DNA from: a virus | Lineage: Duplodnaviria > Caudoviricetes | Direction: 5' to 3' (one strand) | DNA: 64,000 nucleotides | IMG/VR virus record: IMGVR_UViG_3300043812_000016 | Location: 79,483 to 143,482 of that record | Part shown: positions 12,621 through 52,982 of the stretch, in pieces | Layout of the letters: every line of letters begins with the position of its first letter | How positions within the stretch are numbered: position 1 is the first letter of the stretch | The notes under the pieces: model-generated | What the model saw: only the letters and a program-made list of their open reading frames with translations | What the model was told of the DNA's origin: nothing | Database searches by the model: none | Program-made: the position numbers and the translations under genes

Positions 12621-13147
12621 TGGTTATTAATGACTACAGTTTGATTATTGGTATCATTATTGGTATTTCTATTACTGTTATTATAGGCTTGATTGCTATA
12701 AATCGAGAACCTAAGGTTGAGTTGGAACCTCAAAAGGTTAAATTACCTGAGAAACAATCTTCTGATGATATAGCTTCAATAAAAAATGAGATAAGTAAGC
12801 TGTGGAACGCTCTTTCAGATATTGGTCAAAAAAGCGAAAAGTTCTTTGATAGCTATAGTGATAGATTAGTAAGTGTTGAACAGCATATAGGTACTGATTT
12901 AAAGAACGATGATCCTCGTAGACATCTGCGTGTTAATGGGTTTAATCGTCCAGTTGTTTTTGTTGTTAATTATACATATAATGACGGATATGGCCCTTTT
13001 AATTGTTCTGATGCTTTTGCTTATAAAGAAGACGCTTATGCTTTTGTTAGAAAGTTAAAAGAATCCTTAGGTAGTGTAAAAGATATATCAATTAGTCCTA
13101 TGATTGTTTATCTTGATAAGGATAAAACACTAGATAATGTGGATTAA
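12620..13147 (+). CDS. Membrane-anchored hypothetical protein
   Basis: N-terminal TM and coiled coil. Confidence 0.6.
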   Translation: MVINDYSLIIGIIIGISITVIIGLIAINREPKVELEPQKVKLPEKQSSDDIASIKNEISKLWNALSDIGQKSEKFFDSYSDRLVSVEQHIGTDLKNDDPRRHLRVNGFNRPVVFVVNYTYNDGYGPFNCSDAFAYKEDAYAFVRKLKESLGSVKDISISPMIVYLDKDKTLDNVD

Positions 13148-13160
13148 TCTTTAGCAAAGG

Positions 13161-13189
13161 TTGACAACCATGGGTGTATGCTTTATACT
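13161..13189 (+). promoter_or_regulatory. Consensus sigmaA promoter for sRNA1
   Basis: TTGACA-17-TATACT. Confidence 0.85.
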
Positions 13190-13194
13190 AATAA

Positions 13195-13285
13195 TGTTCC
13201 TTAATTCAGTAAGGAAATTGTTTCAAACTTTTATCTGAATTCTTTGTTTGTTTTTCTTTGGCAGGGTTTGTCCCTGTTTTTTTTT
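13195..13285 (+). ncRNA. Candidate ~90-nt sRNA1
   Basis: Lies between a consensus promoter and terminator GGCAGGG-TTTGT-CCCTGTT + T-run. 5' hairpin TTCCTTA/TAAGGAA; no SD-led ORF. Confidence 0.65.
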
Positions 13286-13329
13286 ATCTTAGCTATTGTA
13301 TTTTAATTAAAGTGTGATATACTATAATC

Positions 13330-13452
13330 ATGGTTATGTTAATGAATTATTTAGTTTGACTGGCAGAGACTCGATAATTGTTATACATTACCTTCTTTAT
13401 TAAGATTAGTCGATTAAAAGAGTGCTTATCCTGTTGGGTAGGCGCTCTTTTT
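13330..13452 (+). ncRNA. Candidate ~120-nt sRNA2
   Basis: Promoter TTGTAT-16-TGnTATACT (13296-13323); terminator AAAAGAGTGCTTATCC/GGGTAGGCGCTCTTTT; anti-SD tract CCTTCTTT. Confidence 0.6.
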
Positions 13453-13514
13453 ATTTTGTATATTGTAGATCATACCTGATGAAGTTATAATTAACTTGTA
13501 TAGGAGGTTTTAAA

Positions 13515-14681
13515 ATGAGTAGAAGAAAAACAATAGAAGAATTTAAGCAGGAAGTTTACAATTTAGTAGGTAACGAGTATACAGTAAAGTCTAATACATA
13601 CGTTAATGCTCATACTAAGTTGTTGATAATACATAATAAGTGTGGCTATGGGTGGAAGGTTACACCTCTTAGATTTAATCGTGGACAACGTTGTCCCATC
13701 TGCTCTAAAAAGCCTAAGGATAGTGCTGAGAGGTTAGCCTATGAGGTTTTAATAGATACAAATAATAATTGGTATTTAGATTATAATACTAAATCTGATA
13801 TTTTTCTTACTAGTAGGGTTAATCTTATTAATTGGAAGACAGGAGAATCAGTGAATTTAACTTGGAACAAATTTAGGGTAGGAGGCATTAATGACTCATC
13901 TTTTAAATATTTAGTTAGTAGTATTAAGAATAATTCAGTAAAGAAACGAGTTCAGTTAACTAAATTAGCTATTAGTAAAATTACTCCACCCTTAGTATTT
14001 AAACATCATTTTGACTCGATTGTTAATGGTAATTATATGTTACTTAGTCCTTATCAAGGTTCAAATAAAAAGATTAAAGTGAAACATCTTGTCTGTGGAA
14101 ATACTTATTGGGTAAGGCAGGATAAGTTTATTAATGAGGGCCAAAGATGTGCTTGGTGTGCTTCGCATCACAGCATTCAATCCTATAGTAAGAGACTTAG
14201 TGATGTTAGTAAGTCTCGATATATACTTATAAATAATAATGAGTTTAAGAATAGCAAGTCTTATGCTACTTATTTGTGTACTCGTTGTGGACGTAGGTTT
14301 AAGCAACGTGCTGATTTAATGTTGCAGGGGTATGGTTGCCCTTATTGTAATCAGTCTACTGGGGAGAGATTAGTTGATAGGGTCCTTTCACAGGTCTACC
14401 AATTAGAGGAGTCTCAAGATTTTTACTATGGTTATGTATTGCCTAATAAATTACATTTAGACTTCTATTTACCTTCATCTAACTTAGCTATTGAATATGA
14501 TGGTAAACAACATTATGTACCTGTAGACTATTTTGGTGGAGAAGAAGGATTTAAAAAGATTCAAGATAGGGATAGAAAAAAAGATAAGTATTGTAAGGAG
14601 TGTGGTATCAAGCTAATTAGGATTCCCTATACTATTAATACCTATAGAGGGATAAAAGAGCTACTAGCCTCTTACCTGTGA
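13515..14681 (+). CDS. Free-standing homing-endonuclease-like protein: H..CG/CPxC zinc-ribbon repeats + Vsr/DUF559-like PD-(D/E)XK nuclease
   Basis: C-terminal HLDFYLP...AIEYDGKQH...RDRKKDKYC...IKLIRIPY; own promoter TTGTAG-17-TATAAT at 13463-13491. Confidence 0.8.
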   Translation: MSRRKTIEEFKQEVYNLVGNEYTVKSNTYVNAHTKLLIIHNKCGYGWKVTPLRFNRGQRCPICSKKPKDSAERLAYEVLIDTNNNWYLDYNTKSDIFLTSRVNLINWKTGESVNLTWNKFRVGGINDSSFKYLVSSIKNNSVKKRVQLTKLAISKITPPLVFKHHFDSIVNGNYMLLSPYQGSNKKIKVKHLVCGNTYWVRQDKFINEGQRCAWCASHHSIQSYSKRLSDVSKSRYILINNNEFKNSKSYATYLCTRCGRRFKQRADLMLQGYGCPYCNQSTGERLVDRVLSQVYQLEESQDFYYGYVLPNKLHLDFYLPSSNLAIEYDGKQHYVPVDYFGGEEGFKKIQDRDRKKDKYCKECGIKLIRIPYTINTYRGIKELLASYL

Positions 14682-14682
14682 T

Positions 14683-14711
14683 GGGGTGTCTATTAAATTA
14701 GACACCTTTTT
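14683..14711 (+). terminator. Intrinsic terminator
   Basis: GGTGTCTA...TAGACACC followed by a T-run. Confidence 0.7.
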
Positions 14712-14791: not shown

Positions 14792-15473
14792 TTGGCAACT
14801 GTAGCAGGACAAACGGTAAACACGGGTAACCGAATTTATATTATGTGTAAGAACCATTTAATTGCACGTGCTCAAAGTTTGACAGCTAATAGAAGTTACG
14901 GTACCGAAGGGGTATACGAAATCGGATCCATTAACTAGCATAGTGGTGGTTAACAGTAATGTTAATTGAAAAATTCTACTAAACGGGTAAAGCTGAATAA
15001 CTGAATTGAATAGGCTAGTAAGAAAGGCTACGTCCAGAGGTGGATAGAGCTAACCAACCGTTCTAAAACAAAAGACTAACGATTAAGTCCTTATTAGATT
15101 AAGATAAGGTAATGTAGAACCTCTTATAGAGAGGAAGATATAATCTAATCTTTTTAGAAATAAGTAGTTAATATAATGTATGCCAAGGGAACACGTATAC
15201 CTCAAATATACGGGTTCTCTTACACTAGAAAGATTTCGTATGGTACGAGATAACCTTGCATCTAAACAAATGGATATAGCCCATCTGGGAGAAGACATCT
15301 TGCAAGCTGACGTTTTAACCATTTCTGTAATGGATAGCGTTACTAAAATGGTAGTCGAAGCGTTTTACGGATGCAGTGCTTCCACCTACAACACCAGTTA
15401 TAGAGCCAATCAAATCGTATCTGAATCTATTGAGTTTCTTTACCTCAGCTCTTCGACTGGCTCACAGTCATAA
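14792..15473 (+). CDS. Tail tube protein, spliced: join(14792..14931,15179..15473), 144 aa
   Basis: SD AGAAAGGAG, TTG start. Spliced product MATVAGQTVNTGNRIY...RAQS...YGTEGVYEIGSI|MPREHVYLKYTG...EFLYL matches the Twort/K-type tail tube signature. Confidence 0.9.
14932..15178 (+). mobile_element. Group I intron, 247 nt, no ORF
   Basis: Exon ends in U, intron ends in G. P1 CCAU|UA:UAGUGG with U.G; P10 GCAUA:UAUGC; P3 UUCUAC:GUAGAA; P4 AACGG:CCGUU; P7 AGAUUA:UAAUCU; P8 CCUCU:AGAGG; S-like AAGAUAUAAUCU. Confidence 0.9.
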
Positions 15474-15643: not shown

Positions 15644-17491
15644 TTGAAAAAATTAACTTTTGAAGAATTTAATTATAGGGCACAGCGTATGCTAGGATCT
15701 AGTTATGTTTTTTACCCTCCATATAAGGATATGAAAACGCCTATTAAATATAAGCATTTAGTGTGTGGGACTACTGGAACTTTAATTCCTGATAATATTT
15801 TTAGAGGTAAAGCTAAATGTAAGTATTGTAGTATGAGGAGGAGATCTGGTAGACGTATGATAACAGACGATGAGTTTAGGAAGAGGCTACATAAAGTTCG
15901 CCCTAGCGATGATATTATTTTACTTGAGCCTATACATGGTATTTTTAAGAAAACCAAGGCAAAATGTCTCGTGTGTGGGTATGGTTCAAAAGGTGAATGG
16001 ACTCCTCTTCCAGTTAACTTATTAAAGGGTAAAGGGTGTCCTAATTGTGCAGGTAATGCTCCTAAAACACCAGATAGTGTAATTAAAGAAGTTAGAGATT
16101 TAGGGAATGGTGAGTATGAATTATTAGGAACTAAGAGAACTAAAAAAGATGGTTTATGGTTACATTTACTCCATAAAGAGTGCGAAAATGATTATTGGGT
16201 TCGTGACTATAGTTTCATACATGGTTATCGTTGTAAATTTTGTGCTAACAAAGCAACAGGCGACAGATGTAGGCTATCCTTAGACGAAGTTAAGCAACGA
16301 ATTACAAGGGTTGCTGATGGTCGTTATACATATGTAAGTGGTAATTATAAGAACAACCAAAGCCCTATCTATGTAAGGCACAACGTATGTGGTACTGTGT
16401 TTAAAACCACATGGGGGCAACTTAGTGCTAATAAGGGCTTGTGTCCTAATTGTGGGTCTTCTAATGGTGAACAGGCGATTATGAACTATTTAGTATCACA
16501 CAGGGTTAGTTACTCTTATGGCTACTTAATTCCAGACTTAATAGATAAGAAAAATCTTCACTTTGACTTCTGGTTGCCTCAAGTCAATACTGCTATAGAA
16601 TATGATGGTCAACAGCATTTTAAGCCTGTCGATTTGTTTGGAGGTAAAGAGCGCTATGAATTACAGAAGAAACACGATAGGATGAAAGATGATTACTGTA
16701 AGAAAAAAGGTATTAATTTAATTAGGATTAAGTATAATGAAAATATTAAAGATACTTTAAATTGTTATCTTTTACCTCTAGTAGATAAGCTTAGTGATGT
16801 TGATTTTAGAAAGGTAGAAAGTACAGAGCTTAATGAGTTAATGATTAAGTATCATTATTTACACCGTAAAGTGACTACTTCTTATTGTTATGGTTTATAT
16901 TATCGAGGAAGTCTGGCAGGAATGGTAACATATACGAGACCTAGAATTAGCCTTGCTCAGTCAATCTCGCCTTTAGCTAATAAAGATAACACCCTAGAAT
17001 TATCCCGATTATACATAAAAGACGAAGTAAGCCAAAACTTAAAGAATATTACTTCTAAGTTTGTCTCATGGACTTTAAGACAATTAAAGCAAGAGCAAGA
17101 TGGCAACTGGTTTATTATCTCTTTTGCCGATCAAGGTATGCACCATACGGGAGCAATCTATCAAGCTACTAATTTCTTATACTGTGGGACTACTAAACAT
17201 CGTGAATACTCTTGGAATGGATATGGTAAGCATGGCGGTGTATGGGAAAAAGGTCATTACTATAGGTATATGATAATTAGTCCTATCAAATATCGTTACA
17301 TTATGTTCTTAGGATCAAAGACTTTTAAGAAACAAGCCCGTAAGACCCTTAAATTTGATATTGAACCTTATCCTAAACAAGATAGCGTTCACTATTCTGT
17401 AGGTGATACAGAGGAAAGACTAATTCGAGACCGAGAAACTGGTAAGATTTGGAAAGAGTCTGAGTTAGTTAAACATCTAAAGAAAGATTAA
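15644..17491 (+). CDS. Zinc-ribbon-repeat Vsr/DUF559-like endonuclease fused to a Mom-family (GNAT) DNA-modification domain
   Basis: Four H..C/CxxC repeats; HFDFWLP..AIEYDGQQH; then HYLHR...LELSRL...SFAD..H.G.IYQATNF.Y.G typical of Mom-like proteins; promoter TTGAAT-16-TATAAT at 15593-15620. Confidence 0.8.
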   Translation: MKKLTFEEFNYRAQRMLGSSYVFYPPYKDMKTPIKYKHLVCGTTGTLIPDNIFRGKAKCKYCSMRRRSGRRMITDDEFRKRLHKVRPSDDIILLEPIHGIFKKTKAKCLVCGYGSKGEWTPLPVNLLKGKGCPNCAGNAPKTPDSVIKEVRDLGNGEYELLGTKRTKKDGLWLHLLHKECENDYWVRDYSFIHGYRCKFCANKATGDRCRLSLDEVKQRITRVADGRYTYVSGNYKNNQSPIYVRHNVCGTVFKTTWGQLSANKGLCPNCGSSNGEQAIMNYLVSHRVSYSYGYLIPDLIDKKNLHFDFWLPQVNTAIEYDGQQHFKPVDLFGGKERYELQKKHDRMKDDYCKKKGINLIRIKYNENIKDTLNCYLLPLVDKLSDVDFRKVESTELNELMIKYHYLHRKVTTSYCYGLYYRGSLAGMVTYTRPRISLAQSISPLANKDNTLELSRLYIKDEVSQNLKNITSKFVSWTLRQLKQEQDGNWFIISFADQGMHHTGAIYQATNFLYCGTTKHREYSWNGYGKHGGVWEKGHYYRYMIISPIKYRYIMFLGSKTFKKQARKTLKFDIEPYPKQDSVHYSVGDTEERLIRDRETGKIWKESELVKHLKKD

Positions 17492-17612: not shown

Positions 17613-18227
17613 ATGCGAAGAAAAACTGATAAAGAATTTAAACAAGAATTGCATGATTTAGTAGGTGATGAATATACAGCTTTAGATCATTATGAGAAAG
17701 GAACAATTAAGATTCATATTAAGCATAATAAATGTGGTCATGTGCTATATGTTTATCCTTTGGCTTTTTTACAGAGACCTCACTGCCCTTATTGTAGTGG
17801 TCGCCCACGTTACACCCCAGCAGAGTATAGGGAGTATGTAAAAGAAATGACTAATGACGAATACGAGGTTTTAGATGATTTTGTAAATAATAGGACACCA
17901 ATTCGTTATAAGCATAAGAAATGTGGTACTGTATTTAAGACTCTTCCTAATACCTTTAGTGTTGGGTCTGCTCGCTGTCCTGTATGTGCTAATAAGATTC
18001 GTTCTAAGAAGCAATCCTTAACTACTGAGGAATTTAAGGAGCGAGTTCGTAACTTACCACATGGAGACGAATTCGAAGTTCTATCTGAATATAAAGGCTA
18101 CCACCAACGTGTTACCTTTAAGCATAAGAAGTGTGATACTGTATGGATGACTACCCCAGCCAGTTTCTTTCTTAGTAAACATAAGTGTCCGGTATGTGCA
18201 ATTAATTCAACTAGAAAGGTTAAGTAA
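17613..18227 (+). CDS. Zinc-ribbon-repeat protein without a nuclease domain
   Basis: Three KH.KC..CP.C repeats only; AAGGAG SD; TTGACA promoter at 17559. Confidence 0.75.
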   Translation: MRRKTDKEFKQELHDLVGDEYTALDHYEKGTIKIHIKHNKCGHVLYVYPLAFLQRPHCPYCSGRPRYTPAEYREYVKEMTNDEYEVLDDFVNNRTPIRYKHKKCGTVFKTLPNTFSVGSARCPVCANKIRSKKQSLTTEEFKERVRNLPHGDEFEVLSEYKGYHQRVTFKHKKCDTVWMTTPASFFLSKHKCPVCAINSTRKVK

Positions 18228-19290: not shown

Positions 19291-22200
19291 ATGAAAGGGG
19301 GATTTTTTGTGGGTCAAAAGATCAATATACCCTCACAAAATCAACCGTTTAGAAAGCAATCTTCTCTAGGTGGAGATGTTAGCTTTCGGAATTTAAACGG
19401 AACAAATGATAATTCATTTATTACTTTAGCTAAGGTAACAAAAGTTTATTATAAACAAGGTAAATTAGATTTTAAATTAACTAATACTGTTTCTATTGTA
19501 CAAGAGCAGGGTGGAGACGGTTCTGGGTCTGCTCCAATTCCTGTTGACTTCTTTGGGCGTAAACCAGACGGTCAAGTTTTTGGTCATTACCGTCCAGTTA
19601 AAGTTGGAGACTTAATTGCAATCGCTTATATCAATGGTCACCGTTCTAACCCAATTGTAATTGGTGTTTATCCCGATTCTGCACCAGATTATGAATTGAT
19701 TTCACCATCAATGTTTGAAACTGGTGATGATAATGACTCTGGGATTGCTGAGACTGGTTTAGCTGAACAAAAGGTTTATCCGTCTATGCAGACTAGTTAT
19801 CGTTCTGGTTCGGGAACAATTGCAGAAGCTTTAAATGGTCATTCTTTCTTAATCTTAGATGATGAAACAGCTAATCAATATGACCAGCTTTGGACTGATT
19901 ATGAGTCTGTTGGTTTCTTTAACCATAATGGAGAAACAACTAACCCATTAAAAGAAGAAGCTGGTAGCTGGTTATTAGTTCACGAGGATAATCCAGACGG
20001 TGATGGTGATGGTCACCGTACTCGTTTCTATGTTAATCCTAAAGGTGAAATTCAAATTGTCCTTATGGGTTCTGACTCAGAGGGTGATGTTTCTGTATTA
20101 GAAGGTTCTCGTAAAGACGGGTTTACTCTTAAGCATTATAACGATCTTTCATCAATTAAAGCTGGTGATAAGGGGCAAGATGTTTATAATCCAGACTTTG
20201 ACGTTGCTAAGAAATACGTAGAGCTTAATATTGGTAAAGATCAGTCTATTCTTATGCAAGCTGTAGACCAAGGCTTTTCTGGTGGTAATACTAGTCTTAC
20301 AGTTAAGCCAGATGGTGTTTACTTAAACGATAAGCCTTTAAATGCAAGCATTACAGACTCGGTAAGAGAACATAGTAAAGAAGTAGCAGACGCTATTTCT
20401 AAAGATTTAACCTCTACTAAAGAGTGGGAGGACTTTGATAAGCGGGTTACTCAAGCTGGTAAGGACGCTAAAGACGCTGGTGATAAAGCTAAGCAAGCTG
20501 GTGAAGATGCTAAGCAAGCTGGTATCAGCGCAGAAAAAGCAGGAGAAGACGCTAAGAAAACTGGTGAGGATATTAAGCGTCACGTTATTTACTATGCTTC
20601 TGCTTTCCCTCAAGGAGATCATTACATTCCGGGTAAGTATTTAGCAATTAATACTGAAACTTATATTGCTAATGGTATTATTAAGTCTGCGATGATTGAA
20701 GATGGGGCTATTGATAATGCTAAGATTGCTTATGAAGCTGTTGGTAGTTCACAGATTGAAGACTTGGCTGTTACTCGTGGTAAATTAGCATACATGGCTG
20801 TTGGAACTGCTCAAATTGAAGATCTTGCTGTATCTGATGAAAAAGTAGACCACCTTTCCTTTAATCATATGGAGGGGGAATTATTAGATGCCCATAAGAT
20901 TAGAGTTCGTAATCTTTCGGGTGATAGTATTTCTGCTAAAACTCTTACTGCTGATAAATTAATTATTGGTGAATTAGGGGATATTACAGATAAGTTAGGA
21001 ACCATTGCTGATGGTAAGATTATTGTTAAAGGTAATGGCAAAAATTCAGGGGTTTCATTAGAGGGACTAGACGCAGATAACCCCGATGTTTATACTCCAA
21101 GTAAGAAAGCTATTTTAGCTAATATTGTCAAGGCTATTAGGTCTAGTGCTTTGGCTAGTTTAGACTACGCTAAGCAAGTAGGTTTAAGTAATGATCCCGT
21201 AGCAATAGATTTACAGAATAAATATAACGCAATGGTTGACGGTTTAGCTCCTATCTTTAATGATATGACTGCTACTACTAACTTTGACCATAATACAGTT
21301 GAGAAATTAACATCTGATTGTAATAATGCAATTGATAAATTCCAAAACCTTGCCAATAGTCAATTAAATCGTAAGATTGGGCAAACCGCTGATAATAAGA
21401 ATTCTGTTTATCAAGGCTATGAACAGCCTGCTAATCCACACATTAATGATATATGGTTCCAAGAGAATTCAGACGGAACTTATCAGATTAGAGTTTACGA
21501 TGGCGGATCTTGGATTAGTCCCGGTATGCAGGATATTAAAGAAGTACAAGAGTCACTACAAAACCTACCCCGTTCTTATTATCAAGCTTCTGCACCTACT
21601 GGTAATATTTCAGCCGGCAGTACATGGTATAAGCTAGAAAGAGGATCAGATGGTAATTACACCTATACTCCTTATAAGTGGGAGAATAAGCAATGGGTTA
21701 AGATGCTATCTAGTGATCAAGTAGTAGCTTCTCGTGATATTCGAAGTTTGCAGGATGACTTAAAAGACGTTAATGGTAATCTTACTAAGTTAAATAATCA
21801 GGTAATATATGATAAAACAAATATTCAAGCAGACTATAATGGTAAAATAGAAGCTGTTAACAATGTTGTTAATAGTAATAAAGCAACTACTGATAAGGCA
21901 TTAAGTGATAACCTTAGTACTGCTAAAGGATATGCAGATGATAGGGCTAATGGGGCTTTAGCTAGTGCTACTAAATATGTAGATACACAGCTTAAAATTA
22001 GTAAGGAAGGACTAGAGTCACAGATTTTAGGTACTGGTGGGGGAGTAAACCTTGCTCTAGCATCTGATAGTGATTGGTCTGTTCCAGCTTCTGGTGCTTA
22101 TATTGGTGATTCTAATAAATGTATAGAGCTTTCTCGTTATGTATTGGATGGGGATAACTTTAGTAAAGGTGATACTATTACTTATTCAGTTCATCTAAGT

Positions 22201-37437: not shown

Positions 37438-38182
37438 ATGTGTAATTATTTAAAAGAAGACTATGTATACTTGCTAGGACAAGCCTATGATTGTTTTAAC
37501 TACACCTTAGCAGAAGATAAGACAGCTATAGTAAATTATTTTGTTAAGTCTAATGAGTTAGATCAGCAGATTATGAATGATTTTTATGATTTAAGCTTAA
37601 AATTGCAAGAAAATCCCGTCTGGTTAATGTCTAGCGTTTTTGATTACTATTTATACCTTAATCGAAAACGTAAAACTATCCCGTTCATGCCTTTGGGTAA
37701 CTTTAATCAAGAAATGATTCTAAAGGCTTATGACGGAAAAGATAAATACCGAAAACTAACTAATAAAAACCTATATGTTACCTTAGACAACCTTTACTTA
37801 AAGGCTCTTAATATGCTATTTAAAATTCCAATTAAGGAATTATATAGTGAAGAAAAGACTTATCTTAAAGAAAGAGTTTTTGACTATCGTAACACTTCTT
37901 ATATTAGTGTTTCAATGGAAAAAGGTTAGAAGATTACTTCTAAAACGCTCTAATAAAACGTGGGATAATATGTTATTATTAGATGGTGTGGAGTATTTTG
38001 AACCAGTAATATTTTTGATTTGTAAGGAGCCACATGAAGCCCTAAGTCATCATTTAGGAGTAACGGAATACAGCTATTACTATTATGGAATTAATAATGA
38101 AATAGAGCTTCGAGACCCAGATGAATTAAAGTATCTATTCAATGCTTACCATTATCTTAATCAGAGAGGATTAATAATTTAA
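37438..38182 (+). CDS. Hypothetical replication-module protein; one apparent +1 error near 37922
   Basis: The two ORFs join by removing one base in GAAAAAGGTT. Confidence 0.5.
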
Positions 38183-51550: not shown

Positions 51551-52708
51551 ATGAGTAAAAGGCTAACTACGGCAGAATTTAAACAAAAAATATATAATTT
51601 AGTAGGTAACGATTATAGTCTTATTGGTGAATATATTAATCGAACTACTAAAGTGACATTAAAGCACAATAAGTGTGGATACGTATATCAAGTACTCCCG
51701 TCTAATTTTTATAATGGTACTCGTTGCCCAAAGTGTGCGCCAAAAAGGATTTCAAAGACTAAAACAAAAAGTGCTGACGAATATGCTAAAGAATTCTACC
51801 AAGAAGTAGGCAATGAGTATACCATTATTACTCCTTATAAAAATGCTCGCACTAAAATTAAGATTAAACATAATAAATGTGGATATGTATATTGGGTTAA
51901 TCCTCAATCATTCTTAGCGGGTAGTAGATGTTCAAAGTGTGCAAGAGCTGATAGAACCCATACAACCACTTGGTTTAAGGAAAAAGTAAAGGATCTTACT
52001 GGGGACGAATATAGTGTATTAGGAATCTATGTAAATTCTGGTACAAAAATTAAGATTAAACATAATAAATGTGGATATGTATATTGGGTGCGCCCTAGGG
52101 ACTTTATTAGAGGTAATAGATGTCCTATACAACATAAAGCATATAAAAAAACTACAGCAGACTTTCAAAAAGATTTAGACTTAAAATATGGGTCCGGGAT
52201 ATATCTAGTATTAGGGACTTATATTAATAGATTTACTAAGTTAGAAATTAAGCACTTAAAATGTGGTCATATATGGGAAACAACTCCTAATAATCTATTA
52301 AGTGGTTATGGATGTGATAGATGTGGAACGGCTAGTCGTACTAATTCAGAACCTATTGTAAGACACTTGTTGGATCAATTAAAGGTTAATTATAAATACC
52401 ATCAACATTTTTGGTGGCTTCGATATAAAGGCCCCCAACATTTAGACTTCTATTTCCCAGACAAAAAAATTGCCATAGAGATAGACGGTTTACAACACTC
52501 TAAAAACATCAACTATTTTAATAATAACCTTATAAAAAATAAATTAAGAGATAAAAATAAAGATATTCTTTGTAAGAAACATGGTGTACAATTAATACGT
52601 ATACCATATAAGGGAAGCCACTACACTGAAGATCTAAAGAGAGAAGTACTTAAGGTACTGAAACAATATAATTTGCTAAAGGACGGTGCTAATGACAAAT
52701 TTAAGTAA
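51551..52708 (+). CDS. Free-standing zinc-ribbon-repeat Vsr/DUF559-like endonuclease
   Basis: Four KHNKCG..RC repeats; HLDFYFP..IAIEIDGLQH...LIRIPY. Confidence 0.8.
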   Translation: MSKRLTTAEFKQKIYNLVGNDYSLIGEYINRTTKVTLKHNKCGYVYQVLPSNFYNGTRCPKCAPKRISKTKTKSADEYAKEFYQEVGNEYTIITPYKNARTKIKIKHNKCGYVYWVNPQSFLAGSRCSKCARADRTHTTTWFKEKVKDLTGDEYSVLGIYVNSGTKIKIKHNKCGYVYWVRPRDFIRGNRCPIQHKAYKKTTADFQKDLDLKYGSGIYLVLGTYINRFTKLEIKHLKCGHIWETTPNNLLSGYGCDRCGTASRTNSEPIVRHLLDQLKVNYKYHQHFWWLRYKGPQHLDFYFPDKKIAIEIDGLQHSKNINYFNNNLIKNKLRDKNKDILCKKHGVQLIRIPYKGSHYTEDLKREVLKVLKQYNLLKDGANDKFK

Positions 52709-52982
52709 TGGCTTGATTGATCAAGTTAGTGTTATTAAAGAAAAGTTACGTAAGCATATTGAAAACGGTGAACAAGCTTTGATTGTTGAACATAATATCT
52801 ATGTTCCAGACTCTGCAACTAAAGTTACCTTTACTAAACTTTATCCTCACTTTGTTTATGGTTATGTATTAAACAAAGCAACAGGTGAAAAAATGCCTTA
52901 TACAATTACTTACAATTCTTTAATTTGTCATGACTTTGATGATAGGTCTTGTTGGGAAGACGGATCATCATTATATGATTAA
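52692..52982 (+). CDS. Conserved hypothetical protein between recA and sigma
   Basis: LYPHFVYG motif; synteny. Confidence 0.6.
   Translation: MTNLSNGLIDQVSVIKEKLRKHIENGEQALIVEHNIYVPDSATKVTFTKLYPHFVYGYVLNKATGEKMPYTITYNSLICHDFDDRSCWEDGSSLYD

Follow-up and report, generated by a model that had tools for sequence, protein, structure and literature searches.

The question raised by positions 13161-13285 of the window, the stretch of 64,000 nucleotides analysed here, is whether a promoter and a terminator enclosing about 90 nt without an SD-led open reading frame delimit a small RNA (sRNA1) and, if so, whether this RNA is directed against a family of endonuclease genes of the same phage. The phage genome measures 143,482 bp, with 34% G+C, and the window covers its final 64 kb; the long ORFs of the window are all on the plus strand, no tRNA was found in it, it gave no Rfam match at gathering score, and its proteins share only 33-39% identity with those of Lactobacillus myophages of the Herelleviridae type. 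A search of the annotated phage collection returned no close relative of this phage, and the sole DNA match among annotated phages was to the first 68 nt of a nuclease gene in Staphylococcus phage VL10, whose genome has no antisense copy of the motif described below above control level. Relatives were found as IMG/VR contigs (G001-G004) and as metagenome contigs (L049, L065, L070 and L073; L066 is the record of G003).

The scans retrieved both the promoter and the terminator that the sequence-only reading had placed around the SD-less stretch. The sigma-A-type promoter of sRNA1 (TTGACA-17-TATACT, 13161-13189, plus strand) matches 11 of the 12 consensus bases and is among only four exact TTGACA...TAYANT sites of the 143-kb genome. 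Transcription is predicted to start at about position 13196 and to give a product of about 90 nt (13196-13285). The predicted fold of the 90-nt RNA (z -2.7) is made of a 5' hairpin of 7-8 bp at the predicted 5' end (13196-13216), present in the MFE structure of every homologue, an open U-rich antisense tract of about 43 nt (13217-13259), largely unpaired in both the MFE and the centroid structures and forming the candidate seed, and an intrinsic terminator found by terminator scan (13260-13287; a 7-bp G+C stem at 13260-13278, a loop and T9). sRNA1 overlaps no gene and lies on the same strand as all of the genes. A coding role was rejected: the sole ATG-led frame, of 14 codons from position 13194, has no SD and is not conserved, with non-synonymous substitutions in the relatives and truncation by an insertion in one of them. 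Comparison of positions 13100-13520 with Rfam, at E values of up to 10, returned only noise (E > 1) for sRNA1. sRNA1 is very probably a functional non-coding unit.

The sRNA1 unit was kept in nine related phage sequences, and variation was counted over seven aligned homologues. The -35 hexamer showed no variable column out of 6 and the -10 hexamer 0-1 out of 6, as compared with 9-10 of 17 for the promoter spacer. The 5' hairpin varied at 3-4 of 21 columns, the changes falling in the loop or giving a U.G pair, and the terminator loop at 4 of 5 columns while its stem was kept. The tract varied at only 2-4 of 43 columns. It was significantly less variable (4/43) than the promoter spacer (10/17, 59%; p 1.5e-4) and than the third codon positions of the upstream gene (83/175, 47%; p 1.5e-6). 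The depth of these tests is limited by the related genomes, which are mosaic and close (about 85-95% identity), and the whole spacer region from sRNA1 to sRNA2, the unit that follows, is itself fairly conserved (18-22% variable columns). The three-part fold was the same in every complete homologue. Two homologues carry insertions, one of 87 nt between the hairpin and the tract (G003) and one of 135 nt between the -10 hexamer and the hairpin (G004); in both, the tract and the terminator are intact. This pattern of variation is that expected of a working promoter and a sequence-constrained RNA, and it argues against an inert relic.

The insertions have features of their own. The 87-nt insertion (L003:6521-6607) contains a promoter-like site, TTGGTG-18-TATAAT, that could give a shorter 5' end to the module made of the tract and the terminator. 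The 135-nt insertion (L005:8418-8552) corresponds to an element of about 100 nt that is repeated: two copies of about 90% identity lie outside the window, at genome positions 52652-52747 (plus strand) and 21528-21629 (minus strand); the copy at 21.6 kb lies directly behind another consensus TTGACA-17-TATACT promoter. From its placement, the repeated element looks like a further family of promoter-driven small RNAs, able to recombine at the shared -10 box.

The candidate targets belong to a nuclease family of nine members in the genome. Three of them, all on the plus strand, lie close to sRNA1: a free-standing nuclease gene of 388 aa (13515-14681), a gene of 615 aa fused to a Mom-like domain (15644-17491), and a gene of 204 aa that lacks the nuclease part and is made of Zn-ribbon repeats only (17613-18227). 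The three genes match PHROG 559/9084 (homing or HNH endonuclease) with E values of 7e-72, 4e-81 and 6e-43, and all contain treble-clef Zn-ribbon repeats. A DUF2726-like C-terminal domain, with a Pfam score below the cut-off, is present in the 13515 and 15644 genes and absent from the 17613 gene; when the C-terminal domain of the nuclease was compared by sequence with the PDB, nothing meaningful matched. Four of the nine members begin with the codons AGA AGA AAA ACN ... GAA TTT (RRKT..EF). By profile match and by their mobile, patchy distribution the targets are members of a homing endonuclease family, with putative catalytic activity.

The 13515 gene is part of a mobile cassette (13457-14705, plus strand) that consists of a promoter, the nuclease gene and a terminator and is inserted after the terminator of sRNA2. 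This cassette is present only in the window and in G003, two of six related genomes. It is absent from L001, L002, L005 and L073, in which the sRNA2 terminator abuts the homologue of position 14706 onward. Since these four cassette-free relatives keep sRNA1, sRNA1 lies outside the cassette. The borders of the cassette fall in terminator T-tails (13451-13460 and 14700-14710) that share a microhomology of about 10 nt. Another difference between the genomes lies in the region of the tail-tube gene, where L001 (6936-7205), L002, L005, L003 and L073 carry an extra 260-370 nt that the window (14817-14827) does not have; this extra stretch is about 70% similar to positions 14966-15086 of the window, part of a putative small intron, which suggests variable intron content.

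Hand alignment had paired the sRNA1 tract with the starts of two of the family genes, and RNAduplex reproduced both pairings. The first candidate target is formed by codons 2-16 of the 13515 gene (13519-13562), with which positions 13217-13262 of sRNA1 form 38 predicted pairs (32 Watson-Crick and 6 G.U) in four helices (-32.3 kcal/mol). The second is formed by codons 1-10 of the 17613 gene (17614-17640), with which positions 13236-13263 form 26 predicted pairs (22 Watson-Crick and 4 G.U; -25.9 kcal/mol), exactly as aligned by hand. The paired sites correspond to about +5 to +48 of the 13515 mRNA and about +2 to +28 of the 17613 mRNA. The duplexes are rich in A-U and G.U pairs, the terminator stem is a competitor for their final 3-4 pairs, and the targets are located from 250 nt to tens of kb away from sRNA1. 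The weaker pairing noted for the starts of the 15644 and 51551 genes proved to be at background level (ranks 143 and 149 of 193).

We then compared these pairings with those available elsewhere in the genome. The results of a sliding RNAduplex search of the whole genome, on both strands, showed that the 13515 start was the top trans hit, by a modest margin (-32.5 vs -29.9). In a set of 193 start regions, for which genes were called crudely and the nine family starts were placed manually, family starts ranked 1, 3, 5 and 10 by duplex energy, the 13515 start being first and the 17613 start third; the other five of the nine members were not good partners in this ranking. Among 90 dinucleotide shuffles of the tract, 13 matched the real best energy on some start region (mean best energy -28.7); on family starts, no shuffle came up to the real value, and in none did four family starts enter the top 10. 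Raw energy therefore means little in this A-rich genome, since shuffled tracts often equal the real best energy. Cofolding of the full-length sRNA1 with the 193 start regions, which charges the opening of both RNAs, placed the 13515 start first, the 17613 start second and that of a paralogue at genome position 65386 fifth by ddG; the values of the first, second and third family starts were reached by only 1, 1 and 2 of 200 shuffles, respectively.

The first two ranks agree with the expectation of the sequence-only reading that these two starts would lead the list. Its comparison with shuffled U-rich controls gave a divided answer: raw energies were no better than those of the controls, whereas the specificity for the family was (1/200 by cofold). 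A motif search in five related genomes pointed in the same direction, AGAAAAAC-N5-AAGAATT occurring in sense orientation only at family starts and in antisense orientation only once, in sRNA1, with no occurrence of the reversed control. Plain DNA identity (blastn-short) did not single out the match of sRNA1 to the family starts, and the candidate further antisense fragments of family 5' ends that it gave in the genome were rejected as chance-level 12-18-mers. The ranks of the paralogues depend on one another through the shared motif, and the pattern itself was a post hoc observation; with this in view we estimate the effective significance of the family specificity at about 0.005-0.02. The complementarity thus exceeds chance for nuclease-family specificity, not for raw energy.

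The reading that we prefer, with a probability of roughly 45%, is that sRNA1 is a trans-acting antisense RNA, probably derived from an inverted 5' fragment of a nuclease gene, that blocks the initiation of translation of the family. From the observed anatomy, conservation and family-specific complementarity we infer transcription, pairing in vivo and repression. sRNA1 would be resident in this clade of phages and transcribed early as an RNA of about 90 nt, and its open tract would pair with positions of about +2 to +49 of the mRNAs of the Zn-ribbon-repeat nuclease family. Its best predicted partners would be the genes at 13515 and 17613 and, after them, two paralogues at genome positions 65386 and 54429, with AGA AGA AAA ACN ... 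GAA TTT as the paired codons in common. Pairing inside the region occupied by the 30S subunit would block initiation and keep the proteins of the family low. The earlier proposal of a family-blocking RNA is supported in part: it has the first two cofold ranks in its favour, and has against it the raw energies, the lack of covariation and an exact 16-nt target outside the family.

The tract would most likely have arisen from an inverted copy, of about 46 nt, of the 5' coding end of a nuclease gene. Its reverse complement resembles three family 5' ends over 21-46 nt by local alignment, and its minus strand reads in frame as QRKTNKEFR-stop, the family-like N-terminus that had been noticed in the sequence. 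The origin from an inverted gene fragment proposed there is made plausible by this in-frame minus strand, by the similarity to the 5' ends and by the antisense motif. The limits of the fragment coincide with those of the open region between the two hairpins, as would be expected if a fragment of about 46 nt had been captured to serve as the guide.

A first alternative, unlikely in our view, is that sRNA1 is regulatory and its selected target differs, the 5' leader of a LysM/Apf-like gene being the leading candidate and host mRNAs a further possibility; the match to the nuclease starts would then be a leftover of the origin of the tract or a low-complexity resemblance. The leader in question contains AACAAACAAAGAATTC (genome positions 37713-37728, outside the window), an exact 16-nt complement of sRNA1, where an exact complement of at least 16 nt has a P value of 0.012 (1000 shuffles). 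The site, of 18 pairs with two G.U, is located about 28 nt upstream of the start and adjoins the SD, has sharp edges without flanking similarity, is present in all three complete genomes, and has a ddG (-17.9) that places it among the best few start regions; the relatives that keep sRNA1 in spite of having no nuclease cassette beside it also fit a target of this kind. However, the family starts give stronger predicted hybrids together with a family-wide enrichment, the 16-mer was absent from all of the host-like LysM loci fetched, and the whole LysM leader is about 97% conserved, so that the conservation of the site is uninformative. The two sets of targets, LysM and nuclease, can also coexist. 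The LysM protein has its best match, at 48% identity, in Weissella minor. No ATG, GTG or TTG codon was found upstream of the signal peptide of this secreted protein (genome position 37756; L040:1544), whose frame opens with ATT about 10 nt after GAAAGGA, and the gene may use a non-canonical start.

Also to be weighed, and improbable to our mind, is that the tract is the inert relic of an inverted 5' fragment of a nuclease gene or a chance U-rich stretch, with no role or even untranscribed. The resemblance of the minus strand to a family N-terminus followed by a stop is what such a relic would show; the duplex energies do not stand out for a U-rich tract in a genome this rich in A, and the relatives are close, so that their conservation may partly reflect a short divergence time. 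No covariation was found between seed and target, because the seed core is invariant in nine sequences and the target core in six. The changes that do occur are uncompensated: a U to C change in the seed of L002, and substitutions in G003 by which the two distal helices formed with the 13515 mRNA become weaker. Against an inert tract, on the other hand, stand its far lower variability than that of the promoter spacer 30 nt away and of nearby synonymous sites, the match between the fragment limits and the open region between the hairpins, the drift of spacer and loop beside promoter hexamers and terminator stems that are retained, and the two independent insertions that spared the tract.

The 17613 gene offers a comparison from the side of the target. 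Its homologue accompanies sRNA1 in every relative with enough sequence, and the 21-nt core of the target is invariant in six homologues. In its first ten codons, none of the 10 third positions varied, as compared with 85 of 194 in the rest of the gene (p 0.006). Synonymous change at gene starts is often suppressed for other reasons, and this constraint is thus supportive of targeting but non-specific. In G001 (G001:C1:10541-11124; L009, L010) the 17613 homologue is a pseudogene with several stop codons, and despite this its promoter, its start region and the sRNA1 unit are intact; the retention of sRNA1 there counts against the preferred reading.

Least probable of all, and very much so, is an action in cis, in which transcripts that start at the sRNA1 promoter or in upstream genes and read through both terminators would be kept untranslated by folding of the tract onto the first codons of the 13515 gene, transcripts from the gene's own promoter being translated: although the MFE and centroid structures of positions 13196-13600 hold a helix between 13217-13259 and 13518-13564 (z -4.4, 0 of 100 shuffles) and T4 I-TevI and segB offer a precedent (PMC2988022), two strong terminators lie in between, such a fold is inapplicable where the target lies 4 kb off, as with the 17613 gene, or tens of kb off, as with paralogues, and the four relatives without the 13515 cassette conserve sRNA1, beside which, already in place, the cassette was inserted later.

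In T4, the translation of the homing endonucleases I-TevI, I-TevII, I-TevIII, segB and mobE is repressed by cis hairpins (PMC2988022). An antisense sRNA1 acting in trans would resemble these hairpins in that RNA pairing at the initiation region limits the translation of the nucleases, and a comparable cis fold is predicted here. The inhibitory strand of T4 is in the same mRNA and covers the SD, whereas sRNA1 would cover the first codons and would do so as a transcript of its own, with its own terminator. Large phages are rich in homing endonuclease genes, the expression of which must stay low; to our knowledge, little has been learned of its control outside T4 and its cis hairpins. If our reading is correct, a single RNA acting in trans on a conserved 5' coding motif, shared within a nuclease family of nine members, would add a new layer to this control.

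The nearest published case that was found is CfrI of cyanophage S-PM2, a cis-antisense transcript opposite the endonuclease/psbA region (Millard et al. 2010, as reported in PMC12197685). sRNA1 resembles CfrI, as described in that report, in that a non-coding RNA of a phage is associated with a homing endonuclease gene; unlike CfrI as it is described there, sRNA1 has no overlap with a nuclease gene, and its action would be in trans, upon several paralogues. The classification of sRNA1 as a cis-antisense RNA of the CfrI type was rejected, given that it is on the same strand as the genes and that its targets are distant. A search of the literature for a trans-acting phage sRNA directed against nuclease gene starts found none.

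Trans-encoded base-pairing sRNAs that block initiation through the first codons of an mRNA represent an established bacterial mechanism. sRNA1 shares with them its own promoter, an intrinsic terminator, the lack of an ORF, an open seed, and an imperfect complementarity to several mRNAs within the window occupied by the ribosome. By its sequence it is an independent transcription unit, and its predicted accessible seed has a complementarity to target initiation regions beyond chance. It differs from them in coming from a virulent-type phage and in being apparently aimed at a multi-copy nuclease family of that same phage, and its predicted duplexes are long (26-38 pairs) and rich in A-U and G.U instead of relying upon a short G+C seed; it also has no known chaperone. 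Little is known of the small RNAs of virulent Gram-positive-type phages, and such an action, if confirmed, would give one of them a defined function.

The likeness to a type I antitoxin suggested by the sequence-only reading did not extend to membership of that class. In type I toxin-antitoxin systems such as tisB/istR-1 and hok/sok, the toxin is usually a peptide of less than 60 aa, mostly hydrophobic, and the antitoxin RNA is encoded opposite or adjacent to the toxin gene, with which it forms a fixed pair. As in these systems, the antisense RNA would prevent the translation of a potentially harmful protein. The candidate targets of sRNA1, unlike small membrane peptides, are DNA-binding or nuclease proteins of 204-615 aa, and there is no overlapping or divergent gene pair, a single RNA having many dispersed targets instead; with neither a small toxic peptide nor a fixed antisense pair, the likeness is one of action at most.

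Antisense regulators born from inverted duplications are known among plant miRNA genes and in piRNA clusters that capture transposon fragments. The sRNA1 guide similarly resembles an inverted fragment of its target gene family; unlike those systems, it would act with no such protein machinery, by plain RNA-RNA occlusion in a bacterial cell. It is conceivable, if distinctly doubtful, that a captured inverted guide silences all members of the mobile nuclease family in trans, those brought in by co-infecting phages among them. Silencing of the whole family would, if true, amount to a genome defence against selfish nucleases, comparable to a piRNA cluster but working through simple antisense occlusion. 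The preferred reading, an RNA aimed in trans at the family, would in itself clearly exemplify how a piece of a target gene can become its regulator, and would offer a testable instance of a phage genome in conflict with selfish genes of its own.

Two further loci are, or may be, small RNA units. The sRNA2 unit (about 13290-13460), conserved in all of the relatives, has a TGnTATACT extended -10 promoter and a terminator with a 16-bp stem and is followed by the promoter of the 13515 gene; its Rfam match to Atu_C9 was sub-threshold (26.6 bits vs a gathering score of 40). The earlier suggestion that sRNA2 targets the 15644 gene found no support in the rankings (98 of 193 by cofold, 31 by duplex), and a role as an anti-nuclease RNA was not supported for sRNA2, which shows no specificity for the family. 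One of the four exact consensus promoters, at genome position 38414 outside the window, located 10 nt past the stop codon of the LysM gene and followed by a stretch without an ORF, may mark another small RNA unit.
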